64,000 nt of DNA, taken from positions 7,746,587-7,810,586 of the forward strand of contig CM120648.1 of assembly GCA_051362555.1 (NCBI GenBank), read 5' to 3'. Made by a program: the position numbers and the translations under genes. Source of the stretch: Lingula anatina. Lineage: Eukaryota > Animalia > Brachiopoda. Positions 23,025-63,176 of this stretch are shown here, piece after piece. A model generated the notes under the pieces. That model saw only the letters and a program-made list of their open reading frames with translations. It was not told where the DNA came from and made no database searches. How positions within the stretch are numbered: the first letter of the stretch is position 1; each line of letters opens with the position of its first letter.

Positions 23025-23312
23025 TACCCGCACGAAAACGAAGTAGATACTCCAGCGCAGTAGACTACTGCAATCATGCTGCAAACATGCTTCAAATCTG
23101 CTTCGATGTGGGAGCTAATTAACATATTTGAAACATGCTTCTATCATGCTGCTAATCTACTGCATTTATGCTCCTCCTCTGTACAACCCTATGTAATTTT
23201 TGAAGTAGAATTGCAGTAGGCTATACTGCATTTCTACTGCAAATATGCTCCACACCACTACTGCGTTAATGCTTCTTTGCTACTTCCATTCTACTGCATT
23301 TTCTTGCGGGTA
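23025..23312. mobile_element. 288-bp MITE, copy 1 (TA-flanked CCCGCA...TGCGGG termini)
   Basis: TIRs tacccgcacgaaaa / ttttcttgcgggta; a near-identical inverted copy lies at 60661-60948. Confidence 0.85.
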
Positions 23313-37300: not shown

Positions 37301-40300
37301 TATACTAATGATCATATGAACGTGTGTAAATTTACTCTTCAGCTCATTGCATTTGACAATTGTAAAACTTTTTGTAATTATCTTTCGGACACGATGATTA
37401 ACAGCATTATCACCACCAATTTAAATTATCTACTATACGCAACATGCAAGTTTATACCATATAATTACCATACGGTTTTATGCCCGTGGGGCTTTTTAGC
37501 TTTACATTGAAAATGTCAATATTTGGATATTTGACATTCCACAAAGTTACATTACTCCCAGAAAAACAATCCAATCAAGTTAGTTTTTAAATAAAAGCCG
37601 TATTTCGGTCTTTTACAAATATCTTTTATGAAAGTTTGAAAATTATAAGATACATGGTTTTAGTTTTCCGGTCATTATTACGGCAGTGCCCCAAGTAGGA
37701 CTTTCTTCTGTTTTGGTGCAATTTTACATTTTACATTTGCATCAATTCAAAAAAAAATATGTGAGTGCGTCAATATTAATGTAGCCCGAAAGAGCACACC
37801 TGTCTACTAAAATTAAGAATACATGACCTGATTTTGAATTGGGAATTGCCACAATCCACTACAAAGTGGGTTCTTGTGTTTACACATCGTATCGTAGTTG
37901 TATGAATATCTATGAGCACGGGTGCCACAGGAACACACTTGTCTAATAATATAAAATCTACAACAAAAATCAAACATCTTTGGAATACCATACTACTGTT
38001 ACACAAGACATTGGTTTTGTATTATACATAACGAATGCAAGAAAATTTCTATTACGCACAGTCTTGTACGTGGGTTTACTTTAAACAAAAACCCTTATAC
38101 ATATACATATATCATCCTAAAACAGATGCACCCATCACAAACACATCCTGTTTTATTTATAGAGGCAGCGCTTAGTCACCAATTTCACGTAGACTTAAGT
38201 ATATTATTAAGGAGAAAAAAAAAAAACAAAAAAAAAACAGCAACTCGAGATCGTAAGCAAATCCGCCAGAAGCACATGTACTTACAAATGCTCATTATAC
38301 TTTATGTAACAACTATGCAAATCGCCAATATATTTACCTCTGAACACTACTGGAATATAATGGCACCGTTGAGCTGAAATATGGACGCATGTTGCATCAG
38401 TCTGTAAGGATTCTGTGGTTATACATTAATGGAGGACAGAAGAGCTCAGCTGTATACTTAATTACTGGCTTAATATTTGCAATTAAACTCTCATATGCAC
38501 TTCGTTTGTCATTAGAGGCGTACTAATAACATCAGTATAAAAGAATGAGAATTTAAAGTTGCCCTATTATGCATAATGATAGTGCTAACAATATTCATGA
38601 TTGCAAATTACAATGAAATAATAAATATCAACATTAACTTTTGAAAATATTAATCATGTAGACACTTTAGGGTTTAGAATACAAAACTTCTTTAACTTAA
38701 TGCAAACATAGATTTATAAAAATTGATTTCGCAATTTAAGATTTATGCAATTAATGCCCATTTACTAGGTTTACCGTTATATGCGCACTAACGTATAATA
38801 ATAATGTAATTGAAACTGAGAAAATATCATTTCATCCCCAACACAAGCCCACTTTGTACATAACAAAAAATGCATTGATAGAGACAGGATTAAATACCAA
38901 TTCGGCCAAAATACATACTGAGTGAAGAACAAAAAAGCACCACGTGTTAATAAGCAATTCTAACAGTAGTGCATAAATTCAAAACCACTTTTTATACTAA
39001 CGATCATATGAACGCGTGTAAATTTACTTTTCAGCTCATTGCATTTGACAATTATTAAACTTTTTGTAATTATCTTTCGGACACGATGATTAACAGCATT
39101 ATCACCACCAATTTAAATTACTACTAAACGCAACATGGAAGTTTATACCATATAACTACCAAACAGTTTTATGTCCAGGGTTTTTTAAGCTTTACATTGA
39201 AAATGTCAATATTTGGAAATTTGACATTCCACAAAATTACATTACTCCCAGAAAAACAATCCAATCAAATTAGTTTTTCAATAAAAGCCGTATTTCAGTC
39301 TTTAACAATAACTTTTATGTTAGTTTGAAAATTATAAGATACATGGTTTTAGTTTTACGGTCATTATTACGGCAGTGCCCCAAGCAGGACTTTCTTCTGT
39401 TTTGGTGCAATTTTACATTTTACATTTGCATCAATTCAAAACAAATATGTGAGTGCGTGAATATTAATGTAGCCCGAAAGAGCACACCTGTCCACTAAAA
39501 GTAGGAATACATGACCTGAGTTTGAATTGGGAATTTCCACAATCTACTACAAAGTGGATTCTAGTGTTAACACATCGTATTGCTAACTTACATAAACATA
39601 CAGTAGAAAAAAGTTCTAAACATTAATAACTCGATAGAGAAGCTCTTAGAAGAGACAGACAGCCATGATACCAAAAATATTTTGACCCCCTTCCTTTTTA
39701 TGTCCATTTGCATAATGATAATTGATAAGTTCAAATACAATGCACAATTCTATAAAGCGGTGGTTGACAGTTAATATTTTTAGCTTTTTATATAATTCAA
39801 CAGTAATTTTCTAAGAGTTCTCTTTCTTTTTGAGCAGTATAATTAACCATCCACACTTACTTTTGCTCTCCATCTTCGACTTGTGCAATTTTCGTACCTG
39901 AAACGTAACAACGTTTAACATATTAAAGTCCACAGAAAGAAAGTGAACCGAGAATATATCTGCACCCTAGTAGATAAATTGGTTATATTCTGCAAAGTAT
40001 ACATTAAACTTTTACATTTAACTAACATGAAGCAGCGACGTACTTTACCTTAACAGTTACGACCCAGTTTTACCATCCTTCACCAGTTGAATTTTACCAA
40101 AAGTTTAGTTTTCTATATACACGTGCGGTATTTTCAGCAGCAGGCATTTACTTTTGAAATTTTGAAATCATTGGAACTGTTTCCAAACACGTCACATCCA
40201 ATGTTTCATCTATGAAACATTACTCTTTACGTCACTTTTGGTTTGAACGCTAGAAGCATTATTTTTCACATTTTTTCAATAAACATAGCCTGAAATTATT

Positions 40301-43300: not shown

Positions 43301-46300
43301 GGATCTTCTGGAAGTTACATTTGTAATTAGTTATTTTGTTAAGGGATATCTAAAGTGAAAAATTCTGAGTGGGCACTTTTTATGACATGTTGCTTATGAA
43401 ATCCCCGAAAACCACCTAATAACACGGAATCTCACGCATCAATGCTTATACAATTAACATAGGTATTTAATATGTGCATACATGGGGTCAAAAGTGAAAT
43501 TAATAATCAAAATTAATATTAATATTATGAATTACATGCCACAATTTTTCTTCACAGATAACACTAAAAATATGTAAGTCGATGACATGTAAATGGCCAT
43601 AGTCATGAAATAAGTATATGCTGGGCTTATTTCTTTTTTAGAGCCCATGAAAAAAATGTTACTTTATCATCCCCGGCCGCATTACTTTTTCTGCTCACAT
43701 AAAAAAAAAATTATAATGTAAATTTCCCCCCATCAAATGTGCACCTCATGCACAAAAACAGACTCTCCCTGTACTAAGAGTGCCTCGCACTGCAATTTAT
43801 GTTACTACTAGCTTTGCTCATGGCAGGTTCCATGTTTTAGTGTATGTAATGACGGTCCGGAGGGCATCGTTCAATGTGTTTTTGTATGAGCCAAAAATGC
43901 CCTACTGAATCACTTCTTGTAGGTGACATTGACCCCATTTCCAGATATTAGATCGATCTACTTTAGATCGACCTAACTCCCTGGGGGTTCACGCTAAATA
44001 GCTGTCAGCCGAGCGGACACGAAAGTAAATAACCCCCTTACAACTTGTAATAGGCGGGACGGACATTTAAGCCGGATTAACTGACAGTAATCTACTAAGA
44101 CTCCCCGCGGGGATAGATCAATCTAAAAGCTCTGGGAATACAGCCAATGATGGTAAACTATTATTTTTATGGGGCCTTTATACAGAATTATCACCGATAG
44201 GGGAGATGGGTGCACATGTATCAGCCAACAGAGATAAAACCTTTTGATTAAAATGTAATTATGTCACTGGATTATTAATATTAGTTTTGGGCCTGGGGAT
44301 TGGATGACACGCCTCTTTTTCTGTCAGAGTATGAAGAATACTAGGCCTACACAAGAAGTTACAACTTCTTGGCCTACACGATTCATATCTCAACTCTTCT
44401 AATAATAACTGATATGCCTATCATATCCAAGTAAAGGATTTCTTTAAACATGGATTCCCCAGGAATTCCCCAGTGTGAGCTATTGTAACAGGTAATTTTA
44501 TTGGTCAATGCACAGGCTTAACATAGCTCAACACATAAGAGAAATCCTACAGAGTTGAGGAAATTCCTATTATTTGAGAAAATTATTGGCTTAGGAAATT
44601 CTAAAGGCACTTTGTGCACACCACTTAAGGGGTTTCCTCAGCTAAGAATTTTCTTATCAAGATAAGGATATTTTGTGCATACGGGGCCAGATGCTTTAAA
44701 GTCACTTCCCAATGTTTTGTCTTTGTTCAAGTGGATGCACCCCCACCTAGCCCATCCCATAAGTCACCATATGGGGTGTAGTGGCTACTATAGTGTAGGC
44801 GAGCTGTAAGTGATAAAGAAACCTCAAAGAAGGACAATAAATCCAAACGCTGGAGCGGAACTTGCAGAATTTTGTATAGAATGTCTTTGGGGACCATGAC
44901 CACTCATTTATGTCTCAGCATGATAATGCTTGTCCACGTTCAGCTAATGCAACAGTGTGGTGGTTATATGCTAGCCAGTTCCAGATCCCTAAATGGCAAG
45001 CTCAATATCTAGATCAGAACCTCATTCAGGATGTGTAGAATTTCACAGAAATTGGGTAACTTAGGATATATCATGCAAACAAAAATTACCCCACACTACC
45101 TTGTGCCGTATAAAGAACGCCAACACTCCGCAAACGTTACAGAACTTTGACTCTATACACAGGCTTCTCATGTTCATTCTCTAATCCAGAGAGTACTGTG
45201 CTAAATACTTAAAAGTGTCTTTGACTTTTTACTATGTTTACATTGTTCAATGCTTGTACAATCAATTAAATTTTATAAAAAAACTGAACAAAAAACATTG
45301 GCTTAGAGCACGATTCTCTTTACTGTATTTAACATATTGCATTATATCTGAGACTTTTTTAGTTAGGGGAGTATACAGTGAAACAGACATTAACAACTTA
45401 AATTTCGGTACCAAAGAAACAGAATGGGAGAGCTACCAGTTTCACAACGACAACAGTGAAGTTTCTTGCCATTTCGGTTCTCCCTCAAATGTGATCAGAA
45501 TGTTTCGGAAGCTGTCGGAATGCCATGAGAATATTCAGAATGCAGTCATAGTGCCATTCGATAATTTTCCACTTTGAATGCACTTCGAAAGTTTTTAACA
45601 TGAGCAAAACATTCGGGCCGGCCACAAGAATGGGTAGAAATATTTGGAATGCACTCGGAATGTTTAGAATGCTCATCGAATATCCAGGAACGCACAAAGA
45701 ACTGTCTTTCCGACGGCATTCTTGCTCCTTCCGCCTCTAGTGTGAGGGAGGTATAACAAATGAACTGCATGTATTTGTTAAGTAAAAAAACAAAGAGGCT
45801 AACTGTCATTCATCAAACTTACATTAAAAAGGCAGGCATTCAAATGCTTTTTAAGTTGGCTTGGGCAACTGTAAGGGCATGGAACTTCACTGGAAAATGT
45901 TTGTATTAACATATTTAAAATTATTAGAAAATAACTAGTATGACTCTAGAGAATATGTTGTCTATTCCTTGCAGGATTTTTCGTAGCCGTCTTTTTAATA
46001 GATATGGTAAATACAAACCTTGTGCGTTTTCTTGCCACCGGTCATTGCCTAAAAGAAAGAGTAAATTCGTGAGCATTTTATTGAACATTTATTGAAGGGA
46101 AAACAAACCATCCAACAGTGTGCATAACGTGGAGCAGCACTCTTTGTAATTATGTTTAATAATTGAAAACTTGCTGGGACACTTTCCAATTCAGTGTATG
46201 TGCACATGGTTAATGCTTCTATCTTAGATATAGAAATGTTGAAAATGAAGACAGTCTCCCAGCCGAACAGTAAACCACGTTTTTTATAAAACAGATAAGG

Positions 46301-49300
46301 GTGATTCCACAAAAAAATCAAATTAATGCATATATTTTGAAATACAAACATAAATAGGACATGCTGACATTTTTTCAGCTAAGCGAAAATGTGAACTTTG
46401 ATATAGCAACTTGTATAATCAACACGAAGTATACACATATTTAAAGTTCATAAATAAGTCATAAGTGAAGACAAATGACACTTATTCAGTTGAACGTACT
46501 GCACCCACCTTCTGTTTGGGGGTTTGTTTTCGGTAAATACCGTTGAACGGAAACTAAAGAGATGGTAGCATTTAGTAGTTTAAAGTGCTTAACTTTTATT
46601 AGCCTTGTCTTGAACACAATTTAATGTTTTTTAGACATTAAACACATGTCGGGTGATCTAGTTTCATTGGTATCATGTACAGGTAAAAGCTCATTTAGTT
46701 TACAGCGTGAGTAAACTCACCTTGTGCTGCTGTTAGTGCGTTGTCTGTATAAAAATAGAAATGTAAAAATACAAAGATTCTCGAAAACTTTTACTTTATA
46801 CTTTATATATACAAAGTTTACAATTAAACCGATATATACAAGGAAGTTACAAAACCCGTACGAGTTAAACACGCTATAGAATAAAATATCATATAATTGA
46901 ATAGATTTGATGAGAGAATGTTTTTCTTCAGCTAAATAAGTACTGAATCCGATGTGTTATTGACTTGTGTGTTATTGTCTCTATGCCGTATATATAGTGA
47001 CTCCCTATACAAAAAGAAAAGGTGTAAACTACGGTATATTAGCAAATGTATATACTACATTGTATAATTCCATTGGATAAAACAGCAAATATGTTCGACT
47101 TCAGTATAGCTCTGTTCTGCAGTTGGGTAGCACTCACCTTTTTCTCTTAATGCATTCTCGTGACTCTCTGTATAAAATAGAAATGTAAAAATATGAAGTA
47201 CCTCAAAACTATACATACATAACAGTATTTATGTATTACTTTATACACACAAAATTCACAATAAAACTGGCATATACAAGGAACTGCAAAAGCAACACAT
47301 ATATACAGTGATATATACAAATATCAAAAATATACAAAAGAAGCATAATATTCGCAAGAGTTAAAGGTGTTAAAAAGAAAATAGTATACATGTATATTAA
47401 TGGATCTGATGTGAGAATGCGTTTCTGAGCTCATATGTACATACTGCATTACACGGAAAAAACAGTAAATATCAGTACGTCTCTGTTGTGCAATTTGGAG
47501 ACACTCACCTTGTTCTGCTGTAGGTGCGTTGTCTGTATAAAAATAGAAATGTAAAAATACAAAGATCCCCAAAAAATTTTACTTTATACTTTATACATAC
47601 AAAGTTTACAATTAAACAGATATATACAAGGATGTATGCAGTGATACTCAAAAAATACAAGTTACAAAACCCGTACAAGTTAAACACACTGTAGAATAAA
47701 ATAGCATACATTTGAATAGATTCGATGAGAGAATGTTTTTCTTCAGCTAAATAACTACTGATTCCGACGTGTTATTGACTTGTGTTTCATTGTCTATATA
47801 CATAGTGACTCTCTATACAAAAAGAAAAGGTGTAAACTACGGTATATTAACAAATGTATATACTACATTGTATAATGCCATTGGATAAAACAGCAAATAC
47901 GTTTGACTTCAGTATAGCTCTGCTCTACAGTTGGGTAGCACTCACCTTTTTCTCTTATTGCATTCTCGTGACTCTCTGTATAAAATAGAAATGTAAAAAT
48001 ATGAAGTACCTCAAAACTATACATTCATAACAGTATTTATGTATTACTTTATACACACAAAATTCACAATAAAACTGGCATATACAAGGAACTGCAAAAG
48101 CAACACATATATACAGTGATATATACAAATATCAAAAATATACAAAAGAAGCATAATATTCGCAAGAGTTAAAGGTGTTAAAAAGAAAATAGTATACATG
48201 TATATTAATGGATCTGATGTGAGAATGCGTTTCTGAGCTCATATGTACATACTGCATTACACGGAAAAAACAGTAAATATCAGTACGTCTCTGTTGTGCA
48301 ATTTGGAGACACTCACCTTGTTCTGCTGTAGGTGCGTTGTCTGTATAAAAATAGAAATGTAAAAATACAAAGATCCCCAAAAAATTTTACTTTATACTTT
48401 ATACATACAAAGTTTACAATTAAACAGATATATACAAGGATGTATGCAGTGATACTCAAAAAATACAAGTTACAAAACCCGTACAAGTTAAACACACTGT
48501 AGAATAAAATAGCATACATTTGAATAGATACGATGAGAGAATGTGTTTCTTCAGCTAAATAATTACTGATTCCGATGTGTTATTGACTTGTGTTTTATTG
48601 TCTCTCTATATAGTGACTCCCTATACAAAAAGAAAAGGTGTAAACTACGGTATATTAACAAATGTATATACTACATTGTATAATGCCATTGGATAAAACA
48701 GCAAATACGTTTGACTTCAGTATAGCTCTGCTCTACAGTTGGGTAGCACTCACCTTTTTCTCTTATTGCATTCTCGTGACTCTCTGTATAAAATAGAAAT
48801 GTAAAAATATGAAGTACCTCAAAACTATACATTCATAACAGTATTTATGTATTACTTTATACACACAAAATTCACAATAAAACTGGCATATACAAGGAAC
48901 TGCAAAAGCAACACATATATACAGTGATATATACAAATATCAAAAATATACAAAAGAAGCATAATATTCGCAAGAGTTAAAGGTGTTAAAAAGAAAATAG
49001 TATACATGTATATTAATGGATCTGATGTGAGAATGCGTTTCTGAGCTCATATGTACATACTGCATTACACGGAAAAAACAGTAAATATCAGTACGTCTCT
49101 GTTGTGCAATTTGGAGACACTCACCTTGTTCTGCTGTAGGTGCGTTGTCTGTATAAAAATAGAAATGTAAAAATACAAAGATCCCCAAAAAATTTTACTT
49201 TATACTTTATACATACAAAGTTTACAATTAAACAGATATATACAAGGATGTATGCAGTGATACTAAAAAAATACAAGTTACAAAACCCGTACAAGTTAAA

Positions 49301-52300
49301 CACACTGTAGAATAAAATAGCATACATTTGAATAGATACGATGAGAGAATGTGTTTCTTCAGCTAAATAATTACTGATTCCGATGTGTTATTGACTTGTG
49401 TTTTATTGTCTCTCTATATAGTGACTCCCTATACAAAAAGAAAAGGTGTAAACTACGGTATATTAACAAATGTATATACTACATTGTATAATGCCATTGG
49501 ATAAAACAGCAAATACGTTTGACTTCAGTATAGCTCTGCTCTACAGTTGGGTAGCACTCACCTTTTTCTCTTATTGCATTCTCGTGACTCTCTGTATAAA
49601 ATAGAAATGTAAAAATATGAAGTACCTCAAAACTATACATTCATAACAGTATTTATGTATTACTTTATACACACAAAATTCACAATAAAACTGGCATATA
49701 CAAGGAACTGCAAAAGCAACACATATATACAGTGATATATACAAATATCAAAAATATACAAAAGAAGCATAATATTCGCAAGAGTTAAAGGTGTTAAAAA
49801 GAAAATAGTATACATGTATATTAATGGATCTGATGTGAGAATGCGTTTCTGAGCTCATATGTACATACTGCATTACACGGAAAAAACAGTAAATATCAGT
49901 ACGTCTCTGTTGTGCAATTTGGAGACACTCACCTTGTTCTGCTGTAGGTGCGTTGTCTGTATAAAAATAGAAATGTAAAAATACAAAGATCCCCAAAAAA
50001 TTTTACTTTATACTTTATACATACAAAGTTTACAATTAAACAGATATATACAAGGATGTATGCAGTGATACTCAAAAAATACAAGTTACAAAACCCGTAC
50101 AAGTTAAACACACTGTAGAATAAAATAGCATACATTTGAATAGATACGATGAGAGAATGTGTTTCTTCAGCTAAATAATTACTGATTCCGATGTGTTATT
50201 GACTTGTGTTTTATTGTCTCTCTATATAGTGACTCTCTATACAAAAAGAAAAGGTGTAAACTACGGTATATTAAAAATTTATATACTACAATCGTATATT
50301 GCCATTGGATAAAACAGCAAATATGTTCGACTTCAGTATGGCTCTGTTCTGCAGTTGGGAAGAACTCACCTCGTTCTACGTTTAATGCGTTCAAGTACTT
50401 CTCTATATAAAAAAAAAGAAATGTAAAAATACGAAGTACCTCAAAACTATACATACATAACAGTATTTATGTATTACTTTATACATATAAAATTTACAAA
50501 AAACTTGCATATACAAGGAACTGCAAATGCAACAGATATATATACAGTGATATATACATATATCAAAAATATACAAAAGAAGCATAATATTCGCAAGAGT
50601 TAAAGGTGTTAAAAAGAAAATAGTATACATGTATATTAATGGATCTGATGTGGGAATCCGTTTCTACAGTCAAATGACTAGCACGATACACAAAATTTAA
50701 TACACACGATCATTCGTAAAGATGTTGGATACCCACCTTTAGGCATGAATTTAAATGGAAATGTGTATTTTTCTGGAAAAGAATACATTTCCGTTAATAT
50801 ATAAAGCACTGAGAACACTTTACGCCTTTAACGCATTTCAATGCACAGCTGTTTCTGATGTCATGCAGGACTGCATAACATTGATACATATTTCTCTCAC
50901 TGATATGCTGAAAGATTTTTATGATTATTTAAAACCTGCATTAATAAAATATGGAGTCGACAAATAAAGGTGTTCACTTTAGCTTAGTTATAATTTTTTC
51001 GATCAAAAAAAAGACTGAATAAAATGAAATTGAAAAAAAAACTAATTATGTTGTTGTTATTTGAGAGAGGAAAAGAAAGTAAATTGAATACCATTAAAAC
51101 AGCAAGACTCTACCTGTACGTCATAAGGACGACCGCACACGAACCAATGCAAAGTTCGTTGTTGCATAGAGCAGTGGAAATATACAATTACAAATATACT
51201 GCATAAGATTCAACAATGTGTATTTGTGTATGTTTCTGCGCCAACTTTGTTTAATTTAATTAGAGTTCATAAACATTTACTTACTGTAACGCCGACAGTA
51301 GTAAATCCATGGGATGCACCACTCAACAAAACCTAAAAAAGACAACATATACAATAGACTAAAAAGTACTTTTATAGCCGATTGTTTGCTTTAATAATTA
51401 ACGGTTATTTAAGTACATGTAAATTACAAGTATGAAAGGTTGCGATTAGGAAAATTCATTACTAAACCATTTACAAAATTAAAATTGGGTAATATTTTTT
51501 AATCTTTCGGGTAATAGTACTGGGACATTTGCAACCATTTTTGCTGGATATAATGCAAATGCATTTTCGAATGAAGTTCCACGTGCTATTTCACAATGAA
51601 AACTTACAGACAACCAAACCTATAGCAATCCCAATACCAATCCAATGCCCAATTTTGTTGCCAGTAGGTTCGCTGAAAAGCAAAAAGTAATTTTATGTCT
51701 CCTCATTAATAGCATATTCACAAAATTGCATTAATATTGTCATTTTCATTACATTTCATTACAGTGAAATAAATTAAACTAAACTAAACTAAACTTAAAC
51801 ATTAAGCCAGCCAAAGGATAAGTAAATGACAAACACAGATATATAGTGTTCGAAATTTGGCCGGTAGCGGCCGCTTTTATTGAAAGGTCCCTCTATTAAA
51901 GGATGGTGATAGATATTATATAGCATTAAATAATGTTAATTAGTTAAAAATTACGTAATGTTATCTCTTAAAAATAAATATCAAAACAAATAGTGCAAAT
52001 GTTTTCATTTGTGGGGTTGCAAAGAGGCCGAAAAAATTTTCCAGCGAGGCGCAACTTGTATAATCAAAGTTGAATGCTATGCTCTCCGCAAAGAACTTAA
52101 GCAAAGTGAGGCCGAGTAGCAGTGTTTACTGAATAAATGCGGCAGTGCATGCCTAAAAGAGAGTCCCGGTTTTAGTGCAGCAAATTTCAGCAAAAGTGAC
52201 GCTTCAAAGCTGCCGGGTCTCCCCGATGGACAGATAAATTTCAAGGAGCTTAATACAGTGAATTCCAGATGCCAATACCTTGTTTACGCTCCTAACCTGG

Positions 52301-55300
52301 TAATACCAGATTCCGTTTCCCCCCGCTAATGAAAGTTCGCAACGGCCCATGAAAACAATTAAGTTAACCGTCGCCATAAAACATCGTTTGTCTACGCCAA
52401 ACTTCCCTTTGTGATCAAATGTGATAACAAAGTGTATCGGTATTTGATACATCCGATAAGAAATAAATGCTACGATTACACCAACTCTCACAAATAATCC
52501 GGCATATAACAGTTAAGGAAATATACATGGTTAAGACAGAATGAGCCAAGATATCGAATATTCATCACCATTTTTTTTGTTTGTTCCTAATTTATAATAA
52601 TAAAATATTTATGGGCTCTGTATACAATGAATATTTTCTTGTACAAAAATAATACTAATTTCATTTCGTGTCATATCCGTTAGCAAAGGTCCCATGTCCA
52701 GTATGTTACAGTCATATGCATTTTGGTACCAAAACGCCAAAGACGGGTTCAAAGTTTTCGTATAATTTACCATTAAAATTATTGTAAAACCTGGTCGAAG
52801 AACTTAAACACCGTTTTTCTTTGAATTGCTGTTACCTTTGGTTTTATCTCTATGTGCATAAAATGACATAAAATAATAATGGATTTTTACTTTCAACGCC
52901 AGTAACTCTGCACAGAGCTAGATCACAATTTGCAGATACCGTATTGTAATTTATACATCTTCAACAAGTATGAATTTCCATGATGATCAAATGGACAGGT
53001 ACATGTACATGTTATGATAAGTCTTTCAGAGCGACACGGCTAACTCTGTTGGGGGTGTGAATTCAGCGTAACAAAACCTTTCAAACAGGTTAGGGTCTCG
53101 GTACGTTAAAAAGGTCTATAGTCTGAAACAAAGATCTCCCCGTTTCCTTATGAGAAATACTGATTTTAAGAATTCATTGAATATAACATCCTTTAATGCA
53201 CGCCTCCCCTTTTATGCTTATTCACCACCCCATCTGCTTTTGCACATAAGGTGACCAATTGTTGTTAATATTTGTAGCCAAAGTTCGCTGGTTTGTAGTA
53301 TGGCGTGAGAAATAGATCGGCCTCTGACGTAACTCCGTAACTAAATTAGATATTGTCATGAAAATCGGCATGGTTGAGGAACTTGTGTGTAAACGATACT
53401 TTGTACTGGTGCCAGCATTTGGATTTAATTCTTTTGTGTAGAAGGTATCCCCCCTCTTATCAAGACATTCCATTGAACAAAGGCGTTATGTTTCGTTTCT
53501 TTGCTGATAAAATTGAAAGTAAACCTTTCAAAAGAATGTCCTGGCACCAGATTGTAGTAACTGATGCTCTGAATAAAATGGTGTTTAAACGTTTTTTGTT
53601 GTTGGGATAACTGTTAAGAATCAATGTTATCAATTTGCACCCAAAACGCTTCTCAAATTCACACCGATGTATTTCTAATGCGATTGTATTTTCACATAAC
53701 AAGACACCAATTTCCACATTATCCAAGCAGACAAAGAACATTTTAAGTATCGATCTCCATTGACAGGACAAAATAACAATAAAGATCCCGATGGATTTTC
53801 CTTTTATCGTATTCTTTCGTTCAAAACGGTCAATACCCTATGGTAGACTGACATTTTTTTTCATAACATGTCAGGAAATTTTATTTTTTGTAGCAAATTC
53901 ATATGTTGCAATTGAAGACATGACATAATTGCTGCCATTGTGTGTGAATGTCTGACATTTAATCTGTATACCTATTATATGACGTTGATGTGCAACTTTT
54001 CCGCGGTTTGCTTCGGGCTGTGACCCTTGCACGACCCCGTAACGACAACGGAAATTATGTAAATCCCACTGTTTTGGCTGTTTTCGGCGTTTGTCGGAAA
54101 AGTTGAAATATTAATAAACTATATACCTACCACGCACACGTACAATTAGGGTTAGGAAGCGGCTTGCAGTGTTTGTCTTCGTCGAAATGCTCAACATATT
54201 GGCCATTCTCTGAAGCAAAAAAATGTCAAAATAACCCAAGTGTATGTAAGTTATCCTTAGCTATTAATTATCATTATCCATTCGAACATATTATGAGAAA
54301 TCAAACAAGCAAACAAACAAACAAACAAATAAATAAATAAATAAATGTTGTGAACGACTGACGCATGTGTAAATCTTTCCCTCTGTCTAAGACTAGTAGT
54401 AAGTGATATTTCCAACACTTGAATGTGCATAAAGTTGTTACACAGACAGACGATAATCAAATAAAAACGTTTGATAAATAAATAACATGCTTACTGTCTT
54501 TTATGTGTGGTTCAGTTCCTTCTGGACATTGCTTGCAACCACAAGCTTGGCCTTTCTCCCAACATCGTTTCGGTCTTATTGGTGCAAAACGATTGCACTC
54601 ATCACACCAGCATTTGTTATTCTAAATAATAATAATAAAAAGAAGAAGAAGAAGAATGTACAATCTGAAACTTATCATATCCAATAGACTTAACAATGTA
54701 AACTACAAATACAAATTACAAAAAATGAAAAAAAATGACTGAAAATAAAATGTTGAAAACTAAAAAGAACATAATTATTTTACGGTATAATATAGGCAAG
54801 AATAAGGCGGGCGAATTTGAATAATTTGATGAAAGATGTGATGACCTTCGCCATTAAAGCAAATAATGCAAATAAAATTAGAAAGTCCAATATTTAATGT
54901 GAGGCAATTTCACGCGAGGAATTTTACGTGTGCAAATGGTCGTTCAACCATTCATATTCAATACCGTGTATACCCCATCTTCTGGGGCACCGACCTCTCC
55001 CTTCCCCAGAAAACAGTACATTGAACAAAACAAGCTACACCAAACAGTTATCCTGCATATTGTAGTAAGATTATCCTCGTTTTCTTTTTTGTCCACTATT
55101 TTATGTGTTTCCGGCTTCGTTCTGCTTTTTAATCATTTAGCAACTCTATCTTTCCTTAATAACAAAGGATTGACCTGCCAGTGTATATTTGAGGCAATTG
55201 AGATTTAAACTTCAAAATATGTTCAAAGCTTTTTTATTTTAAATAAATATGACAACCTAAAAGAACGAAACTAGAATCACAAGACTTAATCAATCAATCA

Positions 55301-56653
55301 TAAGATCTGCCTCAGAATATACATTCCTCTTTTGGGACCAGGGCTAATTTCAGAGCAATCTAAATTTATTGAATCCATCTATAAAAAGAGCTCAAAGGAT
55401 CATATACCCAGCTTTTTTGTCATCAGTATATGCCCTACAGATAAGGGAATACTCTATAAGCGACTTTATTTAAGTGAAAATTCAGAACAGGGATAAGCCA
55501 TTCCTTGCATAAAAGGCTACAGCCATTCTGCGTATAACAAGCAATCAATGTAAAGTCCCTACAGTTAAAACTGATTCATTTAAGAAACATTTCTTAAACT
55601 ACTGTATCTTTAATTTCAAGTCCCTTTAACTTTTTAAAGTGAAACATATTAGTTTTAATATACAAGGCCTGACCTAAGTTTATTTTAAAATTGCAATAGT
55701 CAAAACTACCTGTAAACGTTTTTTAAAAGAACTTATATAAATTATGTTTTATATTTTAACTCCCTCATTAGAGTATTAATTAAGAACATATTTAGTTTAA
55801 AGTCTTTTTAAAGTTAATTAAGTTTGATTTTCTTTTAACATTGTACAACTAAACCCTCGAAATGCAATTCAACTGAATAAAATATTATTGTTTTTATATC
55901 ATTTTTAAAGTATAGTTATGTTAGAAAATTGAGCATGTGATATATCACAAACAAAAAATTCTGAAGGACAAGTTGAATTTGTGAGTCTTAACTTAAAACA
56001 CTAGTCAGCACGATGTGCTCAATACACTGCAATTACCTGTGTCTCATTTCCAGCTCGAATGATATATTGTCCTTTATCGGAGCACGTTCGCAGTTTCTCA
56101 CATTTCGACCCAAGAGAAAATTCTCCTGAAAAGGAACACATTTTGCTACAAAAAGGAGATTTAAGATGTGATAGTTGTGACACACTAACACTCTTGCAGA
56201 AGTCACGGCTTGTCTTTAATTTGATAAACCTTACAATGACAGGCCAATGCACGTACCCCTTCACATACAAAAACGAATATGTTGACATCAAGGATCTAAT
56301 TGATAGGTTTTAATGTTCGATGAATTGGGATAACTTGGCAGGATATGTAGACATAGAATATAAGTACAAATATGACTGTTGGACATTTTCTAGCGTGGAT
56401 TTCATACAGACTTTTAGGTTTCGAAAGTGTGTAAAAATATTATATGAAGATCAGTTGTTCCCATGCGTCATCCATAGTCTGCCTATTAAATCAATATCAT
56501 CAGTTTGTCAAATAATTAAAGGACGATGATTTGTAGAAAAATGAAAACGATTTACCTGCACAACAAGTGTCGCTACATTGCCGTGGAAATCTAACCCCAG
56601 CAATGACAGCGATCAGCACCTTTCAATGCAAAAAAAAAAAAACAATATAAAGA

Positions 56654-56693
<40 letters not shown>

Positions 56694-57691
56694 ACATATA
56701 TGTAATTAGAACATACAATGGCAGCAACCACACTAATAAAAATAATAGCATATAAGTTGAAGAGAGAGCCCTGTTTATTTAGCAAAATTGACGTATGTGT
56801 AAACACCCCGACTGTTTGTCTGTAAGACCTTTCATCTGTGCACTACTTTAATACTACTATATTACTTTTGCACATATCATAGAATAAAGAAAGCTCTACA
56901 GAACTTACCGTATAGAAATATAGAAAGAGCATACCGTTAACATGCAAGCAGTCACTTTCCACGCGCGGTGATTCATTTATGTACATGTACACACACTGGA
57001 CAATAGAAGTTTCACCCCTACTGAACCAATACTTAAATAACTGTGGAAAGATATGCTCCTAGTATAATTTTATTAACATCAAATTTCACAAAAGAAACGG
57101 TTCTAACTGAACAAATCAACTGTATCGATATTTTGACATTGCTTATATTCCGCCTCTTCAGGTTAATAACTTTGATTACTCTGATGCAGGGGGTGACACT
57201 TCTATTGTCCAGTGTGTGTACATACACATCATGAGTTTCAAAGAAGTGCTACACAGTTTGCATCAGGCATCAGAGGGTAGCTGAGGATTTATGTTATAAC
57301 GAAGGTGAGCAGGCGTATCAACAGTAAACAGTTGTATTGATTAATATTTCAGTTTAGAATGAAGATATGTAAAACAAAAGGAATAAAACTGCGACAGATT
57401 GACCTAATTTTTTGAGAAACAAAGAAGCGGCTAATGACATGCAAAAAGACACAGAATATCCACTACAGAAGTTGATCCGCAGACTAACAGATCCTCGGAT
57501 CAAAATGTCTTACCCACTTAAAAGCTTACCCATCAATCCGTGCAGGAAATATTCCCAGTGTCTTTTGGGGGATCAGACGACAAGCTTCCAAGTGGGCCCG
57601 CAATGTCTGATCTAAAGATATGTTTGTCTGCGGATCAACATATGGCCATATACACACTTACCGCTAAGAGGACATTCCGATAAGTGGCCAT
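25331..57691 (-). CDS. TNF receptor superfamily-like type I membrane protein, no death domain, micro-exon-encoded repetitive cytoplasmic tail (up to ~33 coding exons, ~448 aa)
   Basis: Minus-strand exons: 57691-57662 (MATYRNVLLA), 56619-56556, 56125-56037, 54621-54495, 54209-54131 (Cys-rich ectodomain), 51672-51608 and 51332-51285 (TM), 50772-50737, 50402-50370, nine 24/30-nt exons in 49956-46721, 46553-46509, 46048-46019, 39897-39861, 38373-38338, 36681-36646, nine 33-nt exons in 34671-27193, terminal 25385-25331 (GPGAVGGGDTRDDSKNSK*). All GT-AG with compatible phases. The 3' half is less certain than the ectodomain and TM. Confidence 0.7.
26313..26760 (-). pseudogene. Tc1-like DDE transposase remnant
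   Basis: 'SPDGNPIENMWDELGRAI...NLDELRDALQDEWTRIP...LVHSMPRRL' plus frameshifted upstream 'NLNAARCRDVLQQNLKPF...FRLQHYN' match the Tc1 C-terminal half. Confidence 0.85.
26750..36120. repeat. Complex modular tandem repeat (MITE-containing, ~4.1-kb higher-order period) carrying 33-nt minus-strand micro-exons
   Basis: The core GTCCCCTCTTGAAATT occurs about 11 times. Near-identical ORFs recur at 27118/31178 and 27607/31701. A block with acceptor, 33-nt exon and gtaaat donor recurs 9 times, plus one 32-nt copy. Confidence 0.88.
36060..39585. repeat. ~1.7-kb tandem duplication (two copies plus a partial third), each full copy with a 36-nt minus-strand micro-exon
   Basis: 36060-37735 aligns by eye with 37735-39425, and the start recurs at 39425-39585. 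Exons 38373-38338 and 36681-36646 have catatttcag acceptors and AG|gtaaat donors. Confidence 0.85.
40365..40702. mobile_element. Non-autonomous TTAA-flanked TIR element (Kolobok-like), copy 2
   Basis: ttaa-AGGGATAATAACTGTTCG ... CGAACAGTTATTATCCCT-ttaa; internal sequence is a diverged reverse complement of 11512-11857. Confidence 0.75.
41100..41830 (+). pseudogene. Highly degenerate Tc1-like transposase remnant
   Basis: Frameshifted fragments resembling RRP...KHRRL, VFF.IEVRFHLY, IRVYRHP.E, MWSG...KT and SKSPYLNHIDN occur in Tc1 order. Confidence 0.6.
42907..44688 (+). mobile_element. Non-autonomous PIF/Harbinger element with HARBI1-like N-terminal remnant
   Basis: TIRs GGCCCCGTATGTACAAAACATC (42907) and GATATTTTGTGCATACGGGGCC (44688) with subterminal TAAG-rich repeats. 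Internal 43150-43310 encodes frameshifted 'RPRIFRDRKN...YPDHEIYQRFCFD..GILFITDLLE', typical of Harbinger nuclease N-termini. Confidence 0.75.
46715..50660 (-). repeat. 808-bp tandem array (~4.8 units), each unit carrying two phase-1 micro-exons of the TNFR-like gene
   Basis: ORF-track duplicates recur every 808 bp (47324/48132/48940/49748). 24-nt exons at 49956-49933, 49148-49125, 48340-48317, 47532-47509, 46744-46721. 30-nt exons at 49591-49562, 48783-48754, 47975-47946, 47167-47138. Each has a polypyrimidine-acag acceptor and a G|gtgagt donor. Confidence 0.9.
51285..51672 (-). CDS. TNFR-like transmembrane exons
   Basis: Exons 51672-51608 and 51332-51285 give EPTGNKIGHWIGIGIAIGLVVCFVEWCIPWIYYCRRY(KK): a hydrophobic helix followed by basic stop-transfer residues; both donors are gtaagt. 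Confidence 0.8.
54131..57691 (-). CDS. TNFR-like signal peptide and cysteine-rich ectodomain exons
   Basis: MATYRNVLLAVLIAVIAGVRFPRQCSDTCCAGEFSLGSKCEKLRTCSDKGQYIIRAGNETQNNKCWCDECNRF...CWEKGQACGCKQCPEGTEP...HCKPLP. The 'C..LRTC...G..II.AG..T.N..C.C' and 'CKQCPEG' segments are typical of TNFR cysteine-rich domains; start context aaaATGG. Confidence 0.8.
56655..56692. repeat. (ATT)n microsatellite in TNFR intron 1
   Basis: Directly visible trinucleotide run. Confidence 0.85.
57471..57639. repeat. Inverted repeat / MITE-like element about 20 nt inside TNFR intron 1
   Basis: GTTGATCCGCAGACTAACAGATC ... GATATGTTTGTCTGCGGATCAAC. Confidence 0.6.
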
Positions 57692-58170
57692 TTTGAAATA
57701 AGGGATTTAGAAGCCGGAAGAAGTCCACTCTAGTACTTTAATGTCGCAAAACAAATCTGAAAAAGACGCACGAGGCCTTTATATTAACCATTTTCAGTCA
57801 AAGCAAGCTGTTGATAATGCTTGAGGATGAGTATTTTTTTAACATTCTCTTTGTAAGCTGACAATATGGCTTATTATTATTTAAATATCCAAAGTGTGCA
57901 CATGTACCAAGAGGAACAAAATCCCAGCTGCACCAAGAATTAACCCTACTTATAGCCCTATTTCGGGAACTAAAAGACCATGTAATCTACGTTATTTGGG
58001 TAAATTTGGGTAAATGAAAACATTTCTTCAATAAATGTCCTCGCTACGACAGCATCAGAAACTGTATCTTTCTAGAAATTTCAAGCTATAACCTAAGTGA
58101 GTTAAACAAACCCCCCTTCATTTTAAGATGCCCCGAGAAACGCTAGTCTTAGCACCTGTGAGCCCATTCA

Positions 58171-58372
58171 GATCCACAGGTCAAATATGGCGGACCCTAC
58201 ATGAAAGAAGAGCCGTCTTATCCGCTGACGGTCTCCCTGCCTCCACATGCGCCATTAAACGGATTAAATCACAGCTCCGTAGCTAGGCAGGCACGTGTGA
58301 ATGTGGGTAGACAATCAGCAGATTAGTCGGCTCTTCTTTCATGTAAGGTCCGCCATATTTGATCTGTGGATC
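58171..58372. mobile_element. Inverted-repeat MITE-like element in the TNFR/TNF intergenic region
   Basis: GATCCACAGGTCAAATATGGCGGACCCTACATGAAAGAAGAGCCG ... CGGCTCTTCTTTCATGTAAGGTCCGCCATATTTGATCTGTGGATC; arms about 45-60 bp. Confidence 0.7.
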
Positions 58373-59068
58373 AGAAGATCCAAGGATCTTCTGTTCTGAC
58401 TTAGGACTCTCTAACTACCCCGATACCCAGTACTTTTCACACCGCGTATATATACTTACAGTCTGTAGGGCGACTTTTCAAATGTATGATGGAAATATCG
58501 AGACGCTTCCCAATTCATGTAGACTTCGTCACTTCCTTAGTTACCTAAGGTGAATCAATAGCCCCACAAACAAACAGGATTCCACTAAACAATTATTAAT
58601 ACTAGTCGACAACAATGACTACTGCATATATTGCATATACGTCACGTGTTGCCTATTCACGACAATGATTGGATTTGTTTTTCAGTATTTGTGCTGAGGA
58701 AGAAAGGGGGCCATATGTTATTGTACATTCATTTCTAATGCATTTAGCTTTGATTGTGTAGGTCTTGATTGAACAGGTGACTGCATGGGGTCACGCTTTA
58801 GGGTCTGATACAAAGCGCTGCTTATATTTCCACTGCTGACGACCTAGTTTGAATACTCAAAAGAAAGTGACCTGGTAAAACCCAAGCGTATCGCATCGAA
58901 GAGAAATAAAAAAAAAAAAACAGGTGCATTTAAATGATGAAGACACGGCGCGGCTTATGTTCGCTTTCGAAAAGAGCTCTTGTGACAAAGTTCCAAATGC
59001 GTATCTCTGTAAAAGAAATGTAACTTGAAAGCAGCATTTGACGATAACGAAGCCCTTAAAAATTCCCG

Positions 59069-62000
59069 ATGATGAATGTTCGTGGTTATGATCACCGACT
59101 TCGACCTCAGCACCTGCGTGTGTACGATGAGCCGCCGCTGTTACCTTCTTCGCAATCCTCGGACCAGTCGAGTACGACTGACGGCTTGTACGCGTCCATC
59201 CGACCATCCAACATCACAACTGTAGACCTTGAGTCATTTTCCGAGCCCAGTGAAAATGACAGTGGTCACAACGACAAAATTCAGCTTGGACGACGATGGC
59301 GCTGTTACCTCATGGCGATCTTCGCCATGTGTTGTTTACAGATGGTAGCCATAGTGGTTCTGGGTGCTGCTATTCATTTTCATCAACATGATGGCGGCAA
59401 ACTGTCCAGGGATACGGCGGCTCTTTTGAACCAACCAATAGCCATGTCCCAAATCGATGTTTCAGAGGATGGGCATGTTGGACCGGCTTATCTGTGTGTT
59501 CCAGGCCTGGATATCAAATACCACAGTGAGAACTGCACCATACTTAAAATATTGCATCGGGTAATTGCGACAGTTTATATTTCTTCGGTAGACTCTAGTG
59601 TGTTTAACTGGTAAATAATCAATTAAAATCACATTTTAGATGCATGGAACATTAAGAGCTTGAAAACTACCGGTACATGTTGCAATTATAAGACGTATAC
59701 ATTTATTTAGCGACTCAGTTACTTGTACTTGCAGTTTCCCTATTATACTGTGTCAAAAACGTTTAAATTTCATTTTGGGGGTTGATTTAAATTACATTGC
59801 CTATAGTTACGTTCGTCCCAATAAGGTATACCCAGGAGACCGTTGAGCCTTTACAGTATACATAATCTTACTACTGTTTAAAATCCCAAAGATACCAGTA
59901 TTCAGCAGTATTCAGCTGCTCTTATAATGCCAGAAGCAATCCTTGTTGATAATGTTGGTAATATAACGCTAACTTATTTTTTTATGTAGCATTTTTGTTA
60001 TTTTCATTACAATTAAATGGTGATAAACCAGAATTATTTAATCTTTGGTTAAAAAGAAAGAGGGGGTAGAGTATCACATATCGGCGTGCAGGTGACGCAG
60101 TGCTTTTTAAAAATATGGCGGGGTATTGTTTAGTGAATCAGCATGATGTTGACTTTTTATCTATTTATTTGCAGCTCCTGGAAAAAGTTGACAAAAATCT
60201 TTATGCAGCTATGAACGACATGAATAAAACCGCCAATAATGTGATGAATGGTGCGTGCAATGCTTCCTCACACCATAGAGGGCTTACAATGTTGGGAAAA
60301 CAACCTAAAGCATGGCCTATGCATTTTACACATGAACCTCTCTTCAATTCATAGTATCACATCGGATTCATTACTTTTTCAACACTTAAAAGTCATTTTT
60401 ATAAGTTACTTATCTAAAACCATGCTCTGGGGATCCATGACGTGTGGATTGTTAGACACAGATGAAATACTAGATTACCCCTCCCCATCCTTCAAAGAAA
60501 AAAGAGGAAGACAGAAAGAGATTAACGCCCAGCAGAAGAATAAAAATCTGGTGTTATATTCTCTTTATTCTTTGTCTAGGAAAATAAGTTTACTTTCGTC
60601 CAGAAATATGGCCCCGTTAAATATATCTTCAATTGTTTACGCATGGCTTCTTGGCTTGTCTACCCGCACGAAAATGCAGTAGTATCGAAGTAGCAAAGAA
60701 GCATTAACGCAGTAGTGGTGTGGAGCATATTTGCAGTAGAAATGCAGCATAGCCTACTGCAATTCTACTTCAAAATTTACATAGGGTTGTACAGAGGAGG
60801 AGCATTAATGCAGTAGATTAGCAGCATGATAGAAGCATGTTTCAAATATGCTAATTAGCTCCCTACTCGAAGCAGATTTGAAGCATGTTTGCAGTATGAT
60901 TGCAGTAGTCTACTGCGCTGGAGTATCTACTGCGTTTTCTTGCGGGTACTCTTTAAGTAAGTAAAGTTAAGTAAATAACAACATTTGCATATATGCTTGT
61001 TTTACATAGGACTTCTTATGATAAATTAAGTTAACCGTTGTCGATATCTCTTTTTACAGGTCTCAACAGAAATATGTCCAAGCTGGCTGTAAACAGTCGT
61101 CTGCAGGACAGCTCGCTGTACAATATCACGGAGACAGTTGCTTCCTTAAATCGGAAAATGAATGGTAAATATGTTTGTACGTCTAAACAGGTACTCTATT
61201 TTTATACTCCCCTACACCTTTTTCCTTCTTATTTCTATTTCTCTGCAGGTATGATGTCCCAGAACAAAATTGATGCCAGTTTTGACCCTTGGTTTCATAG
61301 ACAGATCGAAAATGGTGCTTTGTCTTTATACAATAACTTTCGCTTTCTGTAGAAAATGTCAACATTGAGATAAGTTCCCTTTTTAACTTTCACAACAGAT
61401 TATATTAAATCGGTCCTGAGTGATAACTGTTAAGGTCAACCCCGTGGTTATCTTATAATGGTACCTATATACTTGTGGAGGTACTGTAAACACCTTCTTC
61501 AAATCTGAGTCACCATGATTGAATATATAATCTTAAACGATATTATGCTTGAAAATAATTTATGTGCTTACAGTGTTGGGAAAATAACCTAAACCATGGT
61601 CTTAGAATTTGACACCTGAACCACTCTTCTATTCATATTATCACATCGTTACTTTTTCAACACTTAAAGGTCATTTTTATAAGTTACTTATCTAAAACCA
61701 TGCTCTGGGGACCCATGACGTATGGATTGTCAAACACAGATGAAATGCCAGAATACTCCCCCCCCCCCTCCAAAAAAAAAAAAAAAAGAAGACAGAAAGA
61801 GATAAACGCCCAGAAGAAGAAGAATAGAGCAAGTTGGCCCCCCTGACGTCAACTGCGTTTTTTGTCAAATTGTGAGCCATCTGGCATTATATTTGAAAAA
61901 ATAATGACATTGCATACGTAGCTTAGTTCATGGGGCTTACTTTAAAATCGGTTTTGTTTCTCTAACTCATTCCTAGTTGGCTCTACAAGGCCAAAAGTGT

Positions 62001-63176
62001 GTAACTGGGTCAACTAGCCCCGGTCTCCCCTACAACCACACACAACTGACCCTGTTACATGTATATATATTCCGTTATTCCAGGTCTCCAAGCTAATGTC
62101 ACTGATTTACCTAATCACATCCCTTTAACATTGGCACGCTTGAGAGGCGGGAGAGACAATAACAGTAAGTGTTGTTTTAAATAAGTTTGACAATAAAGGG
62201 TGTAAATTTTATACCAAAGGCTTCATACTGTAAGATGTAACATTATTCTTCTCTTTAATTCTGTACATTTGTTTCTCCTTAATGCAACATGTACATAGGG
62301 TTGTCATTTTTAATAAATTCTAAAGGAGACGCTAAATATTTGGATTATTTCAAAGAATCAAAAGCTTGAGAAGTGCAAATGAACAGAAAATGGGAGGAGG
62401 GCTTTGCCAGAAAAGACAAAAATATGTGAAAGGTGGTTAGCTTTAGAGACAAGCGCGTTGACCCGTTTTTTTATAAGGAAACAGTAAATCTAATGGTATG
62501 TGCTCCTTTAGGAACAGCACTTGTTTTCAAGAGGGCTCATAAGCCATAAAAAAGGCTTGCAATACAAACTACTAAATCATGGACAGTATTTATGAGAAGA
62601 TTCAAGTAAACTTCGTCTTCAATGCAATAAATTTGTAATGTAAAAATGATCCAAATCATTTACTAGCGAAAGAATATGATATAAGAAACGCCAACGGAAG
62701 TATTGGCTATGCACCCTTATTAATAAGCTTCAGATGCAGTTACATGTAGAGTCAATTTCAAAGACATGCTATTGTCTTGTTATATATTTAAGTTTTATGT
62801 TTTAGTTCTAACGTGGGATGACGGTAATGATAAAATCCTTCGTGGGGATGTCAAGTATAACAAATCCGAAAAGTGCCTAAGAGTGGAGCGAGAGGGGCAC
62901 TTTCTCGTGTACAGCCAGCTCTGTGTGAGCGTTCCCAGTACTACTACTAGTTCAGCTGTGCATTTTACTCAAGCAATCCAGATAAGAATTCCATCCGGCT
63001 GGCACAGTGTGCTTTATAAGGAACTTAGTGTGCAGCGAGGCCATATTGATTGCATATATGTGTCAGGAATAGTGCACCTCGTCAAAGACGACTGCGTCAA
63101 AGTTGATTTTTCAGATGAAGAGTTAATCAGTAGCAACCAGGAGTACAATTCGTTTGGTTTGTACATGCTGGCATGA
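59069..63176 (+). CDS. TNF superfamily ligand (type II membrane protein with C-terminal TNF homology domain), ~396 aa
   Basis: Exons 59069-59560, 60175-60250, 61060-61164, 61249-61314 (less certain), 62084-62164, 62806-63176. TM WRCYLMAIFAMCCLQMVAIVVLGAAIHF. THD motifs LARLRG, LTW, LRVEREGHFLVYSQL, IYVSGIVHLVKDDCVKV, NSFGLYML*. Confidence 0.9.
60288..61830 (+). repeat. Intragenic ~250-bp direct duplication in TNF introns
   Basis: 60288-60545 and 61573-61830 share TGTTGGGAAAA...TTACTTTTTCAACACTTAAA...AAGTTACTTATCTAAAACCATGCTCTGGGGA.CCATGACG. Confidence 0.75.
60661..60948. mobile_element. 288-bp MITE, copy 2 (inverted), in TNF intron 2
   Basis: Reverse-complement match to 23025-23312 over the full length, with the same TIRs. 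Confidence 0.85.
62806..63176 (+). CDS. TNF homology domain terminal exon
   Basis: The canonical THD pattern L-x-W, G-x-[FY]-x-V-Y-S-Q, G-x-x-x-L-x-x-x-D and terminal F-G-x-Y is present; preceded by a tttag acceptor. Confidence 0.93.

Follow-up and report, generated by a model that had tools for sequence, protein, structure and literature searches.

The stretch of Lingula anatina DNA analyzed here (assembly GCA_051362555.1, contig CM120648.1, positions 7,746,587 to 7,810,586; 64,000 nucleotides, referred to as the window) is animal DNA with introns and a GC content of 30–42% per 2 kb. It carries a TNF-family ligand gene on the plus strand and, next to it on the minus strand, a gene whose product is likely a divergent member of the TNF receptor (TNFR) family. 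The two start codons, ATG at 59069 (plus) and ATG at 57691 (minus), are divergently oriented and 1377 bp apart, exactly as a first-pass annotation of the sequence had reported.

The ligand gene consists of five exons, which join into a single open frame of 374 amino acids (aa). Its orthologue among the L. anatina RefSeq proteins is XP_013413434.1 (P0001).

59069..59560, plus: coding part of ligand exon 1, which encodes the cytoplasmic tail, the type-II membrane helix (~aa 81–102) and the start of the stalk; reads and joint 59560>60175
60175..60250, plus: ligand exon 2, stalk; RNA GT..AG joints at both ends
61060..61164, plus: ligand exon 3, stalk; RNA GT..AG joints at both ends
62084..62164, plus: ligand exon 4, end of the stalk and beginning of the TNF homology domain; joint 61164>62084, read row 62164..62809, alignment to XP_013413434.1
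62806..63176, plus: ligand exon 5, TNF homology domain and stop; Pfam PF00229, Foldseek, 80% identity to XP_013413434.1

Seven of nine raw-read RNA runs were aligned to the window (X1–X4 and X7–X9), with a likeness threshold for read placement of 90% for X1, X2 and X4 and 80% for the remaining runs. Runs X7–X9 belong to one study, and their libraries look unstranded. The read joints given here come from the rows listed, and eight further joint rows exist.

All four ligand introns were seen in RNA: GT..AG joints mark three of them, and the joint of the fourth has replaced letters. At 80% likeness, joint 59560>60175 was found in 17 reads (4/4 runs), 60250>61060 in 14 reads (3/4 runs), 61164>62084 in 9 reads (3/4 runs) and 62164>62806, the one with replaced letters, in 5 reads of X9. 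Reads continuous with exon 1 showed that the 5′ untranslated region (UTR) is transcribed at least as far as 58984.

The last exon matched the Pfam family TNF (PF00229) with 39.7 bits (cut-off 23, E 5.8e-10), and CD40 ligand was the top hit when the same exon was searched against PDB sequences (E 0.0065). A monomer model of the domain, with a predicted local distance difference test score (pLDDT) of 74, matched TNF in Foldseek (E 1.3e-6, template modelling (TM) score 0.74), and CD40L structures were also matched. The topology is type-II, with one hydrophobic stretch near residues 81–102, no N-terminal signal and the TNF domain at the C-terminus. The plus-strand gene is a spliced TNF-family ligand, as the first-pass annotation had proposed; both the Pfam score above cut-off and the fold match bear this out.

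Among 1.84 billion representatives searched, with 7 matches at E ≤0.001, the four best relatives of the ligand were L. anatina RefSeq proteins. Identity over the TNF domain was 80% for XP_013413434.1, 48% for XP_013417426.1 and 44% for XP_013395686.1, and 24–31% for the other TNF matches. Exon 1 showed 56% identity to the N-terminus of another Lingula ligand, P0003. Neither the ligand domain nor one receptor exon gave a match in word-index searches, and no relative turned up in a metagenome scan. The same group contains two more Lingula ligands (P0002 and P0003; 44–53% TNF-domain identity), which sit on other scaffolds; LOC106178681 and LOC106162807 are paralogous ligand loci.

Ligand introns 2 and 3 have 265 bp in common at 85% (60282–60543 and 61566–61824), and exons 2 and 3 end in identical codons; this sharing suggests that the stalk grew by exon duplication. 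Intron 2 also contains one copy of a 291-bp element (60658–60948) that occurs a second time in opposite orientation, with 95% identity, at 23025–23315.

On the minus strand, seven in-frame coding exons from 57691 to 51285 encode a signal-like N-terminus, 16 cysteines and one membrane helix. These exons predict a small membrane protein of type-I topology, whose outer part holds two Cys-rich modules. The exons and the 5′ part of the gene are as follows, with XP_013413435.1 (P0009) being the RefSeq receptor-like orthologue.

58460..58480, minus (58480 nominal; upper end unmapped): 3′ end of the non-coding first exon; 4 X9 reads joining 57753 and 58460, donor GTAAGT at 58459
57757..58459, minus: 5′ UTR intron, 703 bp; 4 reads in X9, canonical splice sites
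57662..57756, minus: 65 nt of 5′ UTR, ATG 57691 and first 10 codons of the signal-like peptide; XP_013413435.1 residues 1–11 map here, E 0.14
56556..56619, minus: end of the signal-like peptide and first three Cys; frame and XP_013413435.1 mapping
56037..56125, minus: bulk of the first Cys-rich module; 27/30 identical to XP_013413435.1, RNA joint to 54621
54495..54621, minus: second Cys-rich module, 7 Cys; RNA joint from 56037, 30/42 identical to XP_013413435.1
54131..54209, minus: end of the Cys-rich region, with an 8-residue insertion carrying two extra Cys relative to XP_013413435.1; frame and mapping
51608..51672, minus: juxtamembrane segment and N-terminal half of the membrane helix; hydropathy, XP_013413435.1 residues 123–144
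51285..51332, minus: C-terminal half of the membrane helix, followed by basic stop-transfer residues; XP_013413435.1 mapping, low RNA depth in the bin in X8 and X9

The joint 56037>54621 was found in 13 reads of X7–X9 and is the sole receptor coding joint among the rows listed. A search with a stack of six receptor exon translations kept one protein of 71 candidates, XP_013413435.1 (194 aa, annotated as ‘uncharacterized’). This protein maps to eight window exons in the same order, through the membrane helix, so that an independent annotation joins the Cys-rich exons to the membrane exons, a link the first-pass annotation had relied on; the membrane exons themselves (51672–51608 and 51332–51285) lie outside the interval it had delimited. 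An extra Cys exon considered at 54.3 kb was rejected, as XP_013413435.1 joins the flanking exons directly. The 5′ UTR intron contains a 210-bp imperfect inverted repeat (75%, ~58167–58376), which draws many unrelated RNA reads, has abundant related copies among those reads and is inferred to resemble a miniature inverted-repeat transposable element (MITE).

The assignment of this protein to the TNF receptors was approached by several searches. TNFR_c6 clusters ranked top by ESM Atlas features, with 0.83 for residues 20–126 of XP_013413435.1 and 0.87 for residues 26–70, and by Atlas structure TNFR clusters occupied 7 of 8 rows, with TM 0.74–0.84 over 43–45 residues. When exon 56125–56037 was searched against PDB, the best of 177,635 sequences was osteoprotegerin (TNFRSF11B), with the cysteines aligned, at an E of only 1.1; PDB searches with the second receptor exon and with the stacked-exon profile returned no TNFR. 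The single-pass type-I layout with only Cys-rich modules outside fits the TNF receptor superfamily. The first module has four Cys, and we take it to be of the A1–B1 type.

A canonical TNFR cysteine-rich domain (CRD) is ~40 aa long with six Cys (bioRxiv 10.1101/2021.12.26.474206). The earlier description of the gene as TNFR-like holds as regards Atlas features and structure, the best PDB exon match and the signal–Cys–membrane helix layout, and fails at Pfam TNFR_c6. The minus-strand gene is likely a divergent, TNF-receptor-like member of the family.

The four X9 reads that join 57753 to 58460 fit a GT..AG intron at 58459–57757. The first-pass figure of ~1.4 kb between the genes is thus right for the distance between start codons, while 703 of the 1377 bp belong to the receptor 5′ UTR intron. 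With a hidden 5′ exon above 58460 and ligand reads reaching 58984, at most 523 bp remain between the transcribed parts:

58461..58983, no strand: upper bound of the region holding both transcription starts (putative shared promoter); set by read ends, exact starts unmapped

Divergently paired genes are usually defined by a distance below 1 kb (PMC12672016), and the claimed divergent geometry, with opposite strands and transcribed parts within 523 bp, lies well under it. In a scan of 12 motif classes over 58460–59068, TGACG half-sites were present in 4 copies (top 1% of windows, uncorrected), and no NF-kB, AP-1, interferon-stimulated response element (ISRE) or TATA match was found.

RNA depth was compared between the two genes. 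In the bin of receptor exon 3, coverage was present in X7, X8 and X9 but absent from X1–X4. Depth over ligand exon 1 was 3.7–6.1 per gigabase in X7–X9 versus 0–0.45 in X1–X4, which is at least eight times higher per base read. Receptor and ligand depth were correlated across the 7 runs (Spearman rho 0.91, nominal p 0.005). Of the co-expression that had been predicted, co-detection in the same three of seven runs, all from one study, was thus found; it is consistent with co-regulation, short of proof.

The two RefSeq orthologues, XP_013413434.1 (LOC106175826, ligand) and XP_013413435.1 (LOC106175827, receptor), have consecutive accessions and gene IDs, and both loci list 736,928 as their longest contig. 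Consecutive RefSeq numbers usually mirror gene order, so the ligand and receptor orthologues would be neighbors in the RefSeq assembly as well. Adjacency in relatives, which the first-pass annotation had named as a point to check, therefore extends to a second, diverged assembly by way of consecutive IDs, and within one genus only.

The window differs in letters from the RefSeq version. The ligand domain was identical at 96/120 positions and the stalk at 46/49 (Fisher p 0.035), and the receptor was diverged throughout, with 63–90% identity by region in addition to the 8-residue two-Cys insertion. Selection specific to the binding interface was considered and rejected, because the receptor signal (12/19 identical) and membrane region (23/33) were as diverged as the second module (30/42).

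Differences were also observed between the window and the reads. In X7, depth over the ligand domain exon was 0.01 at 90% likeness and 5.0 at 80%, with exon 1 covered at both (the bins differ). Ligand residue 279 is E in the window, K in XP_013413434.1 and G in 14/14 (X7), 2/4 (X8) and 11/17 (X9) reads. As many read differences are fixed, including some in the 5′ UTR, the animal of the window may represent a separate lineage; alleles, paralogues and cryptic species are indistinguishable from these data. The pair looks lineage-specific, since the only close ligand relatives found are Lingula proteins, and for the same reason the data have no bearing on early TNF/TNFR co-evolution, which the locus had been suggested to inform.

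The cytoplasmic part of the receptor-like protein is predicted to exist in a short and a long form:

50678..50772, minus: first cytoplasmic exon, with two alternatives; read-through giving a short tail that ends at a stop near 50678, as in the RefSeq model, or splicing at the 50737 donor, giving a 36-nt exon that leads into a micro-exon chain
46019..50402, minus: predicted cytoplasmic micro-exons, set 1; a 33-nt exon, nine exons alternating between 24 and 30 nt within an 808-bp tandem repeat, then a 30-nt exon, all in phase 1
27193..39897, minus: predicted cytoplasmic micro-exons, set 2; exons of 37 and 32 nt, which jointly restore the frame, followed by a degenerate tandem array of nine 33-nt copies
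25372..25385, minus: candidate last exon of the long form; stop after four codons, acceptor in the top 1%

XP_013413435.1 maps to the first of these exons with an E of 6.7e-11, and its acceptor and donor lie in the top 0.1% and top 3% of sites, respectively. After the donor at 50737, 22 further micro-exons of 24–37 nt are predicted down to 27193, in two tandem arrays and with one frame kept. Splice sites were scored with a matrix built from 12 introns of the ligand and receptor-like genes; for 12 internal micro-exons scored, most sites were in the top 3% of minus-strand AG or GT of the window. The predicted long tail would comprise ~240 cytoplasmic residues, many of them Q, A, E or P, and would contain four AEQE, eight PPEQQ and one PxExxD. 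AEQE and PPEQQ resemble consensus motifs for TRAF binding.

Two of four distinct changes among the set 2 copies are silent in phase 1 and none of four in phase 2. On these small numbers, translating the 33-nt micro-exons in phase 2, which gives a Ser/Thr-rich (mucin-like) sequence, was set aside. Searches for death-fold families in 123 frames (minus strand, 22.7–51.2 kb, ≥45 aa) gave 0 matches, where a domain split over short exons could escape, and no death domain was found in XP_013413435.1 by Pfam.

The repeats behind the two sets are an 808-bp intron–micro-exon unit repeated ~4.5 times with 92–96% identity (46715–50665, minus) and a degenerate array with ten 32–33-nt exons (27193–35466, minus). 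The arrays within 27193–50402 are likely a copy-number-variable coding region. A 1.7-kb tandem duplication (87%, 36064–39580) lies in a long intron of the predicted tail, and no exon was recognised inside it.

Considering all results, we assign a probability of about 0.5 to the reading that the ligand and receptor-like genes form a co-regulated, co-transcribed cognate TNF/TNFR-like cassette. A single bidirectional promoter would then activate the two genes in the same cells. The ligand would form a trimer anchored in the membrane in type-II orientation, perhaps released by shedding from the long stalk, and would bring together the two-module receptor on the cell that makes it or on adjacent cells. 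The receptor, having no death domain, would signal by recruiting TRAF adaptors, and the long tail of tandem micro-exons would repeat short TRAF-type motifs, so that adaptor valency would depend on the number of exon copies. Through tight linkage, the two binding surfaces, both evolving fast, would be passed on together. A complex prediction with three copies of XP_013413434.1 (60–201) and XP_013413435.1 (20–126), run without alignments, gave a score of 0.00 and a mark of 0.34, which speaks neither for nor against binding.

A number of points weigh against this interpretation. Pfam TNFR_c6 returned no match for XP_013413435.1 at E up to 10, nor for three single window exons; phmmer of the same protein against PDB returned no TNFR, and the Atlas scores, being <0.9 and below the structure bar, are leads only. 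The hidden receptor exon rests on 4 reads of one run, and NF-kB, AP-1 and ISRE are the motifs missing from the putative promoter. The runs with co-detection, X7–X9, form a single study with mixed 90%/80% thresholds, unstranded-looking libraries and no control gene. The long tail is without RNA confirmation, only its first exons lying within the RNA stretch and with almost no depth, and the RefSeq model is short-tailed; one AEQE-type motif also appears in 14% of shuffles. The RefSeq neighborhood was inferred from IDs with orientation and distance unseen, and a common gene order is in any case to be expected between two assemblies from one genus. Finally, a genome scan across many windows will meet chance neighbors.

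It is possible, at clearly lower odds than a cognate cassette, that the genes are neighbors without partnership: members of two expanded, fast-turnover immune families joined by rearrangement, perhaps sharing open chromatin, with the receptor binding another ligand or none. TNF and TNFR families are indeed expanded in lophotrochozoans (oyster, PMC4346834), divergent pairs account for >10% of human genes (PMC12672016), conservation was seen within one genus only and co-detection is weak. However, only 0.003–0.04 head-to-head pairs would be expected by chance per genome, assuming 10–25 ligands, 20–100 receptors and 30,000 genes; the gap is ≤523 bp while local introns reach kilobases, and receptor depth tracks ligand depth within X7–X9 (three points). 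The partners could also be cognate and the receptor inhibitory, a co-expressed decoy or brake whose short-tailed form captures ligand without signalling, limits its range and provides built-in feedback. The RefSeq model, which stops ~30 residues past the membrane helix, the lack of a death domain in the 123 frames and structural leads that include osteoprotegerin-like and decoy-type clusters all fit such a role; it is nevertheless unlikely, given more than 20 frame-keeping micro-exons with good splice sites and copy changes that favor a continuing frame, which suggests a coded long tail.

Least probable of all is that the minus-strand gene encodes another Cys-rich surface protein and the pair is a misreading. 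The spliced orthologue matches neither Pfam TNFR_c6 nor a TNFR in PDB, the single-sequence AlphaFold model of its ectodomain (pLDDT <50) was too poor for a fold search, the second Cys-rich module resembles unnamed mollusc clusters in the Atlas as much as TNFRs, and the Cys count changes from 16 in the window to 13 in XP_013413435.1. Still, TNFRs come out on top in the Atlas, by features and by structure, as well as in the PDB exon search, and the type-I layout fits them. A more far-reaching form of the cognate cassette would be a lock-and-key system in Lingula, with one bidirectional promoter, polymorphic haplotypes, binding domains changing together, possible duplication as a unit at paralogous loci and a receptor signal whose strength depends on how many TRAF-motif micro-exons are present. 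We regard it as doubtful; if true, a solitary animal would have a TNF-based counterpart to tgrB1/tgrC1 self-recognition.

Compared with known systems, the ligand shares with the TNF superfamily (TNF, CD40L; PF00229) the type-II membrane topology and the C-terminal TNF homology domain, and differs from other members by its long stalk and its Lingula-restricted group. In vertebrates and tunicates, TNF genes are described as ligand-only tandems, with no receptor neighbor described in the available parts of PMC7674686 and PMC12843592, and oyster TNF genes are likewise described in ligand-only tandems and not beside a receptor in that of PMC4346834.

The receptor-like protein resembles the TNFRs without death domain (4-1BB/TNFRSF9, GITR/TNFRSF18, HVEM/TNFRSF14 and, for CRD4, osteoprotegerin) in its signal, Cys-rich modules, single membrane helix and the absence of a detected death domain. 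In contrast to these, it has only two modules, which lie below Pfam detection, four instead of six Cys in the first module, a predicted tail of more than 20 tandem micro-exons, and a gene placed head-to-head with a ligand. Biomphalaria TNFRs without death domain have been proposed to use TRAF2 (PMC8995041), and the four-repeat, p75-like lineage includes Lingula (bioRxiv 10.1101/2021.12.26.474206). As this type of receptor escapes Pfam and is ‘uncharacterized’ in RefSeq, lophotrochozoan TNFR counts may be too low.

The closest arrangement is that of tgrB1/tgrC1 in Dictyostelium, a receptor and ligand placed head-to-head with a shared promoter (PMC13648343). These proteins have Ig folds, proven allele-specific binding and population polymorphism, whereas the Lingula pair is known here from its gene arrangement. 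Animal immune receptors and ligands linked in one locus are represented by the natural killer (NK) complex pairs NKR-P1/Clr, NKp80/AICL and NKp65/KACL (PMC4041007; also treated in PMC4701786). In those pairs both sides are C-type lectin paralogues of one family origin, whereas the Lingula genes encode unrelated folds, so that their linkage required rearrangement.

The literature searched (PMC11463336 in addition to the papers named above), which left subscription journals mostly outside and did not cover supplements or synteny figures, contained no head-to-head TNF/TNFR pair and none of these accessions, and the arrangement is apparently undescribed. To our knowledge, invertebrates have many TNF ligands and receptors, most of them orphans, with pairings largely unknown outside Drosophila. 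With a head-to-head pair, gene position by itself suggests a candidate cognate partner, and the pairing and co-evolution of TNF and TNFR in invertebrates become directly testable. Should the pair prove haplotype-specific, the few linked recognition loci would be joined by one based on TNF.

Several other features were noted in the window. A convergent neighbor gene at ~17857–22957 (plus) contains calcium-binding EGF exons (Pfam EGF_CA) and, by eye, a sushi-like and a Cys-rich exon; a 194-codon frame within it (22376–22957) had no Pfam or PDB match. A frame at 13524–13973 (minus) looks by eye like the end of a reverse transcriptase of a long interspersed nuclear element (LINE), without Pfam support, and a DDE_3 transposon remnant lies at 26316–26621 (minus, E 3e-4).

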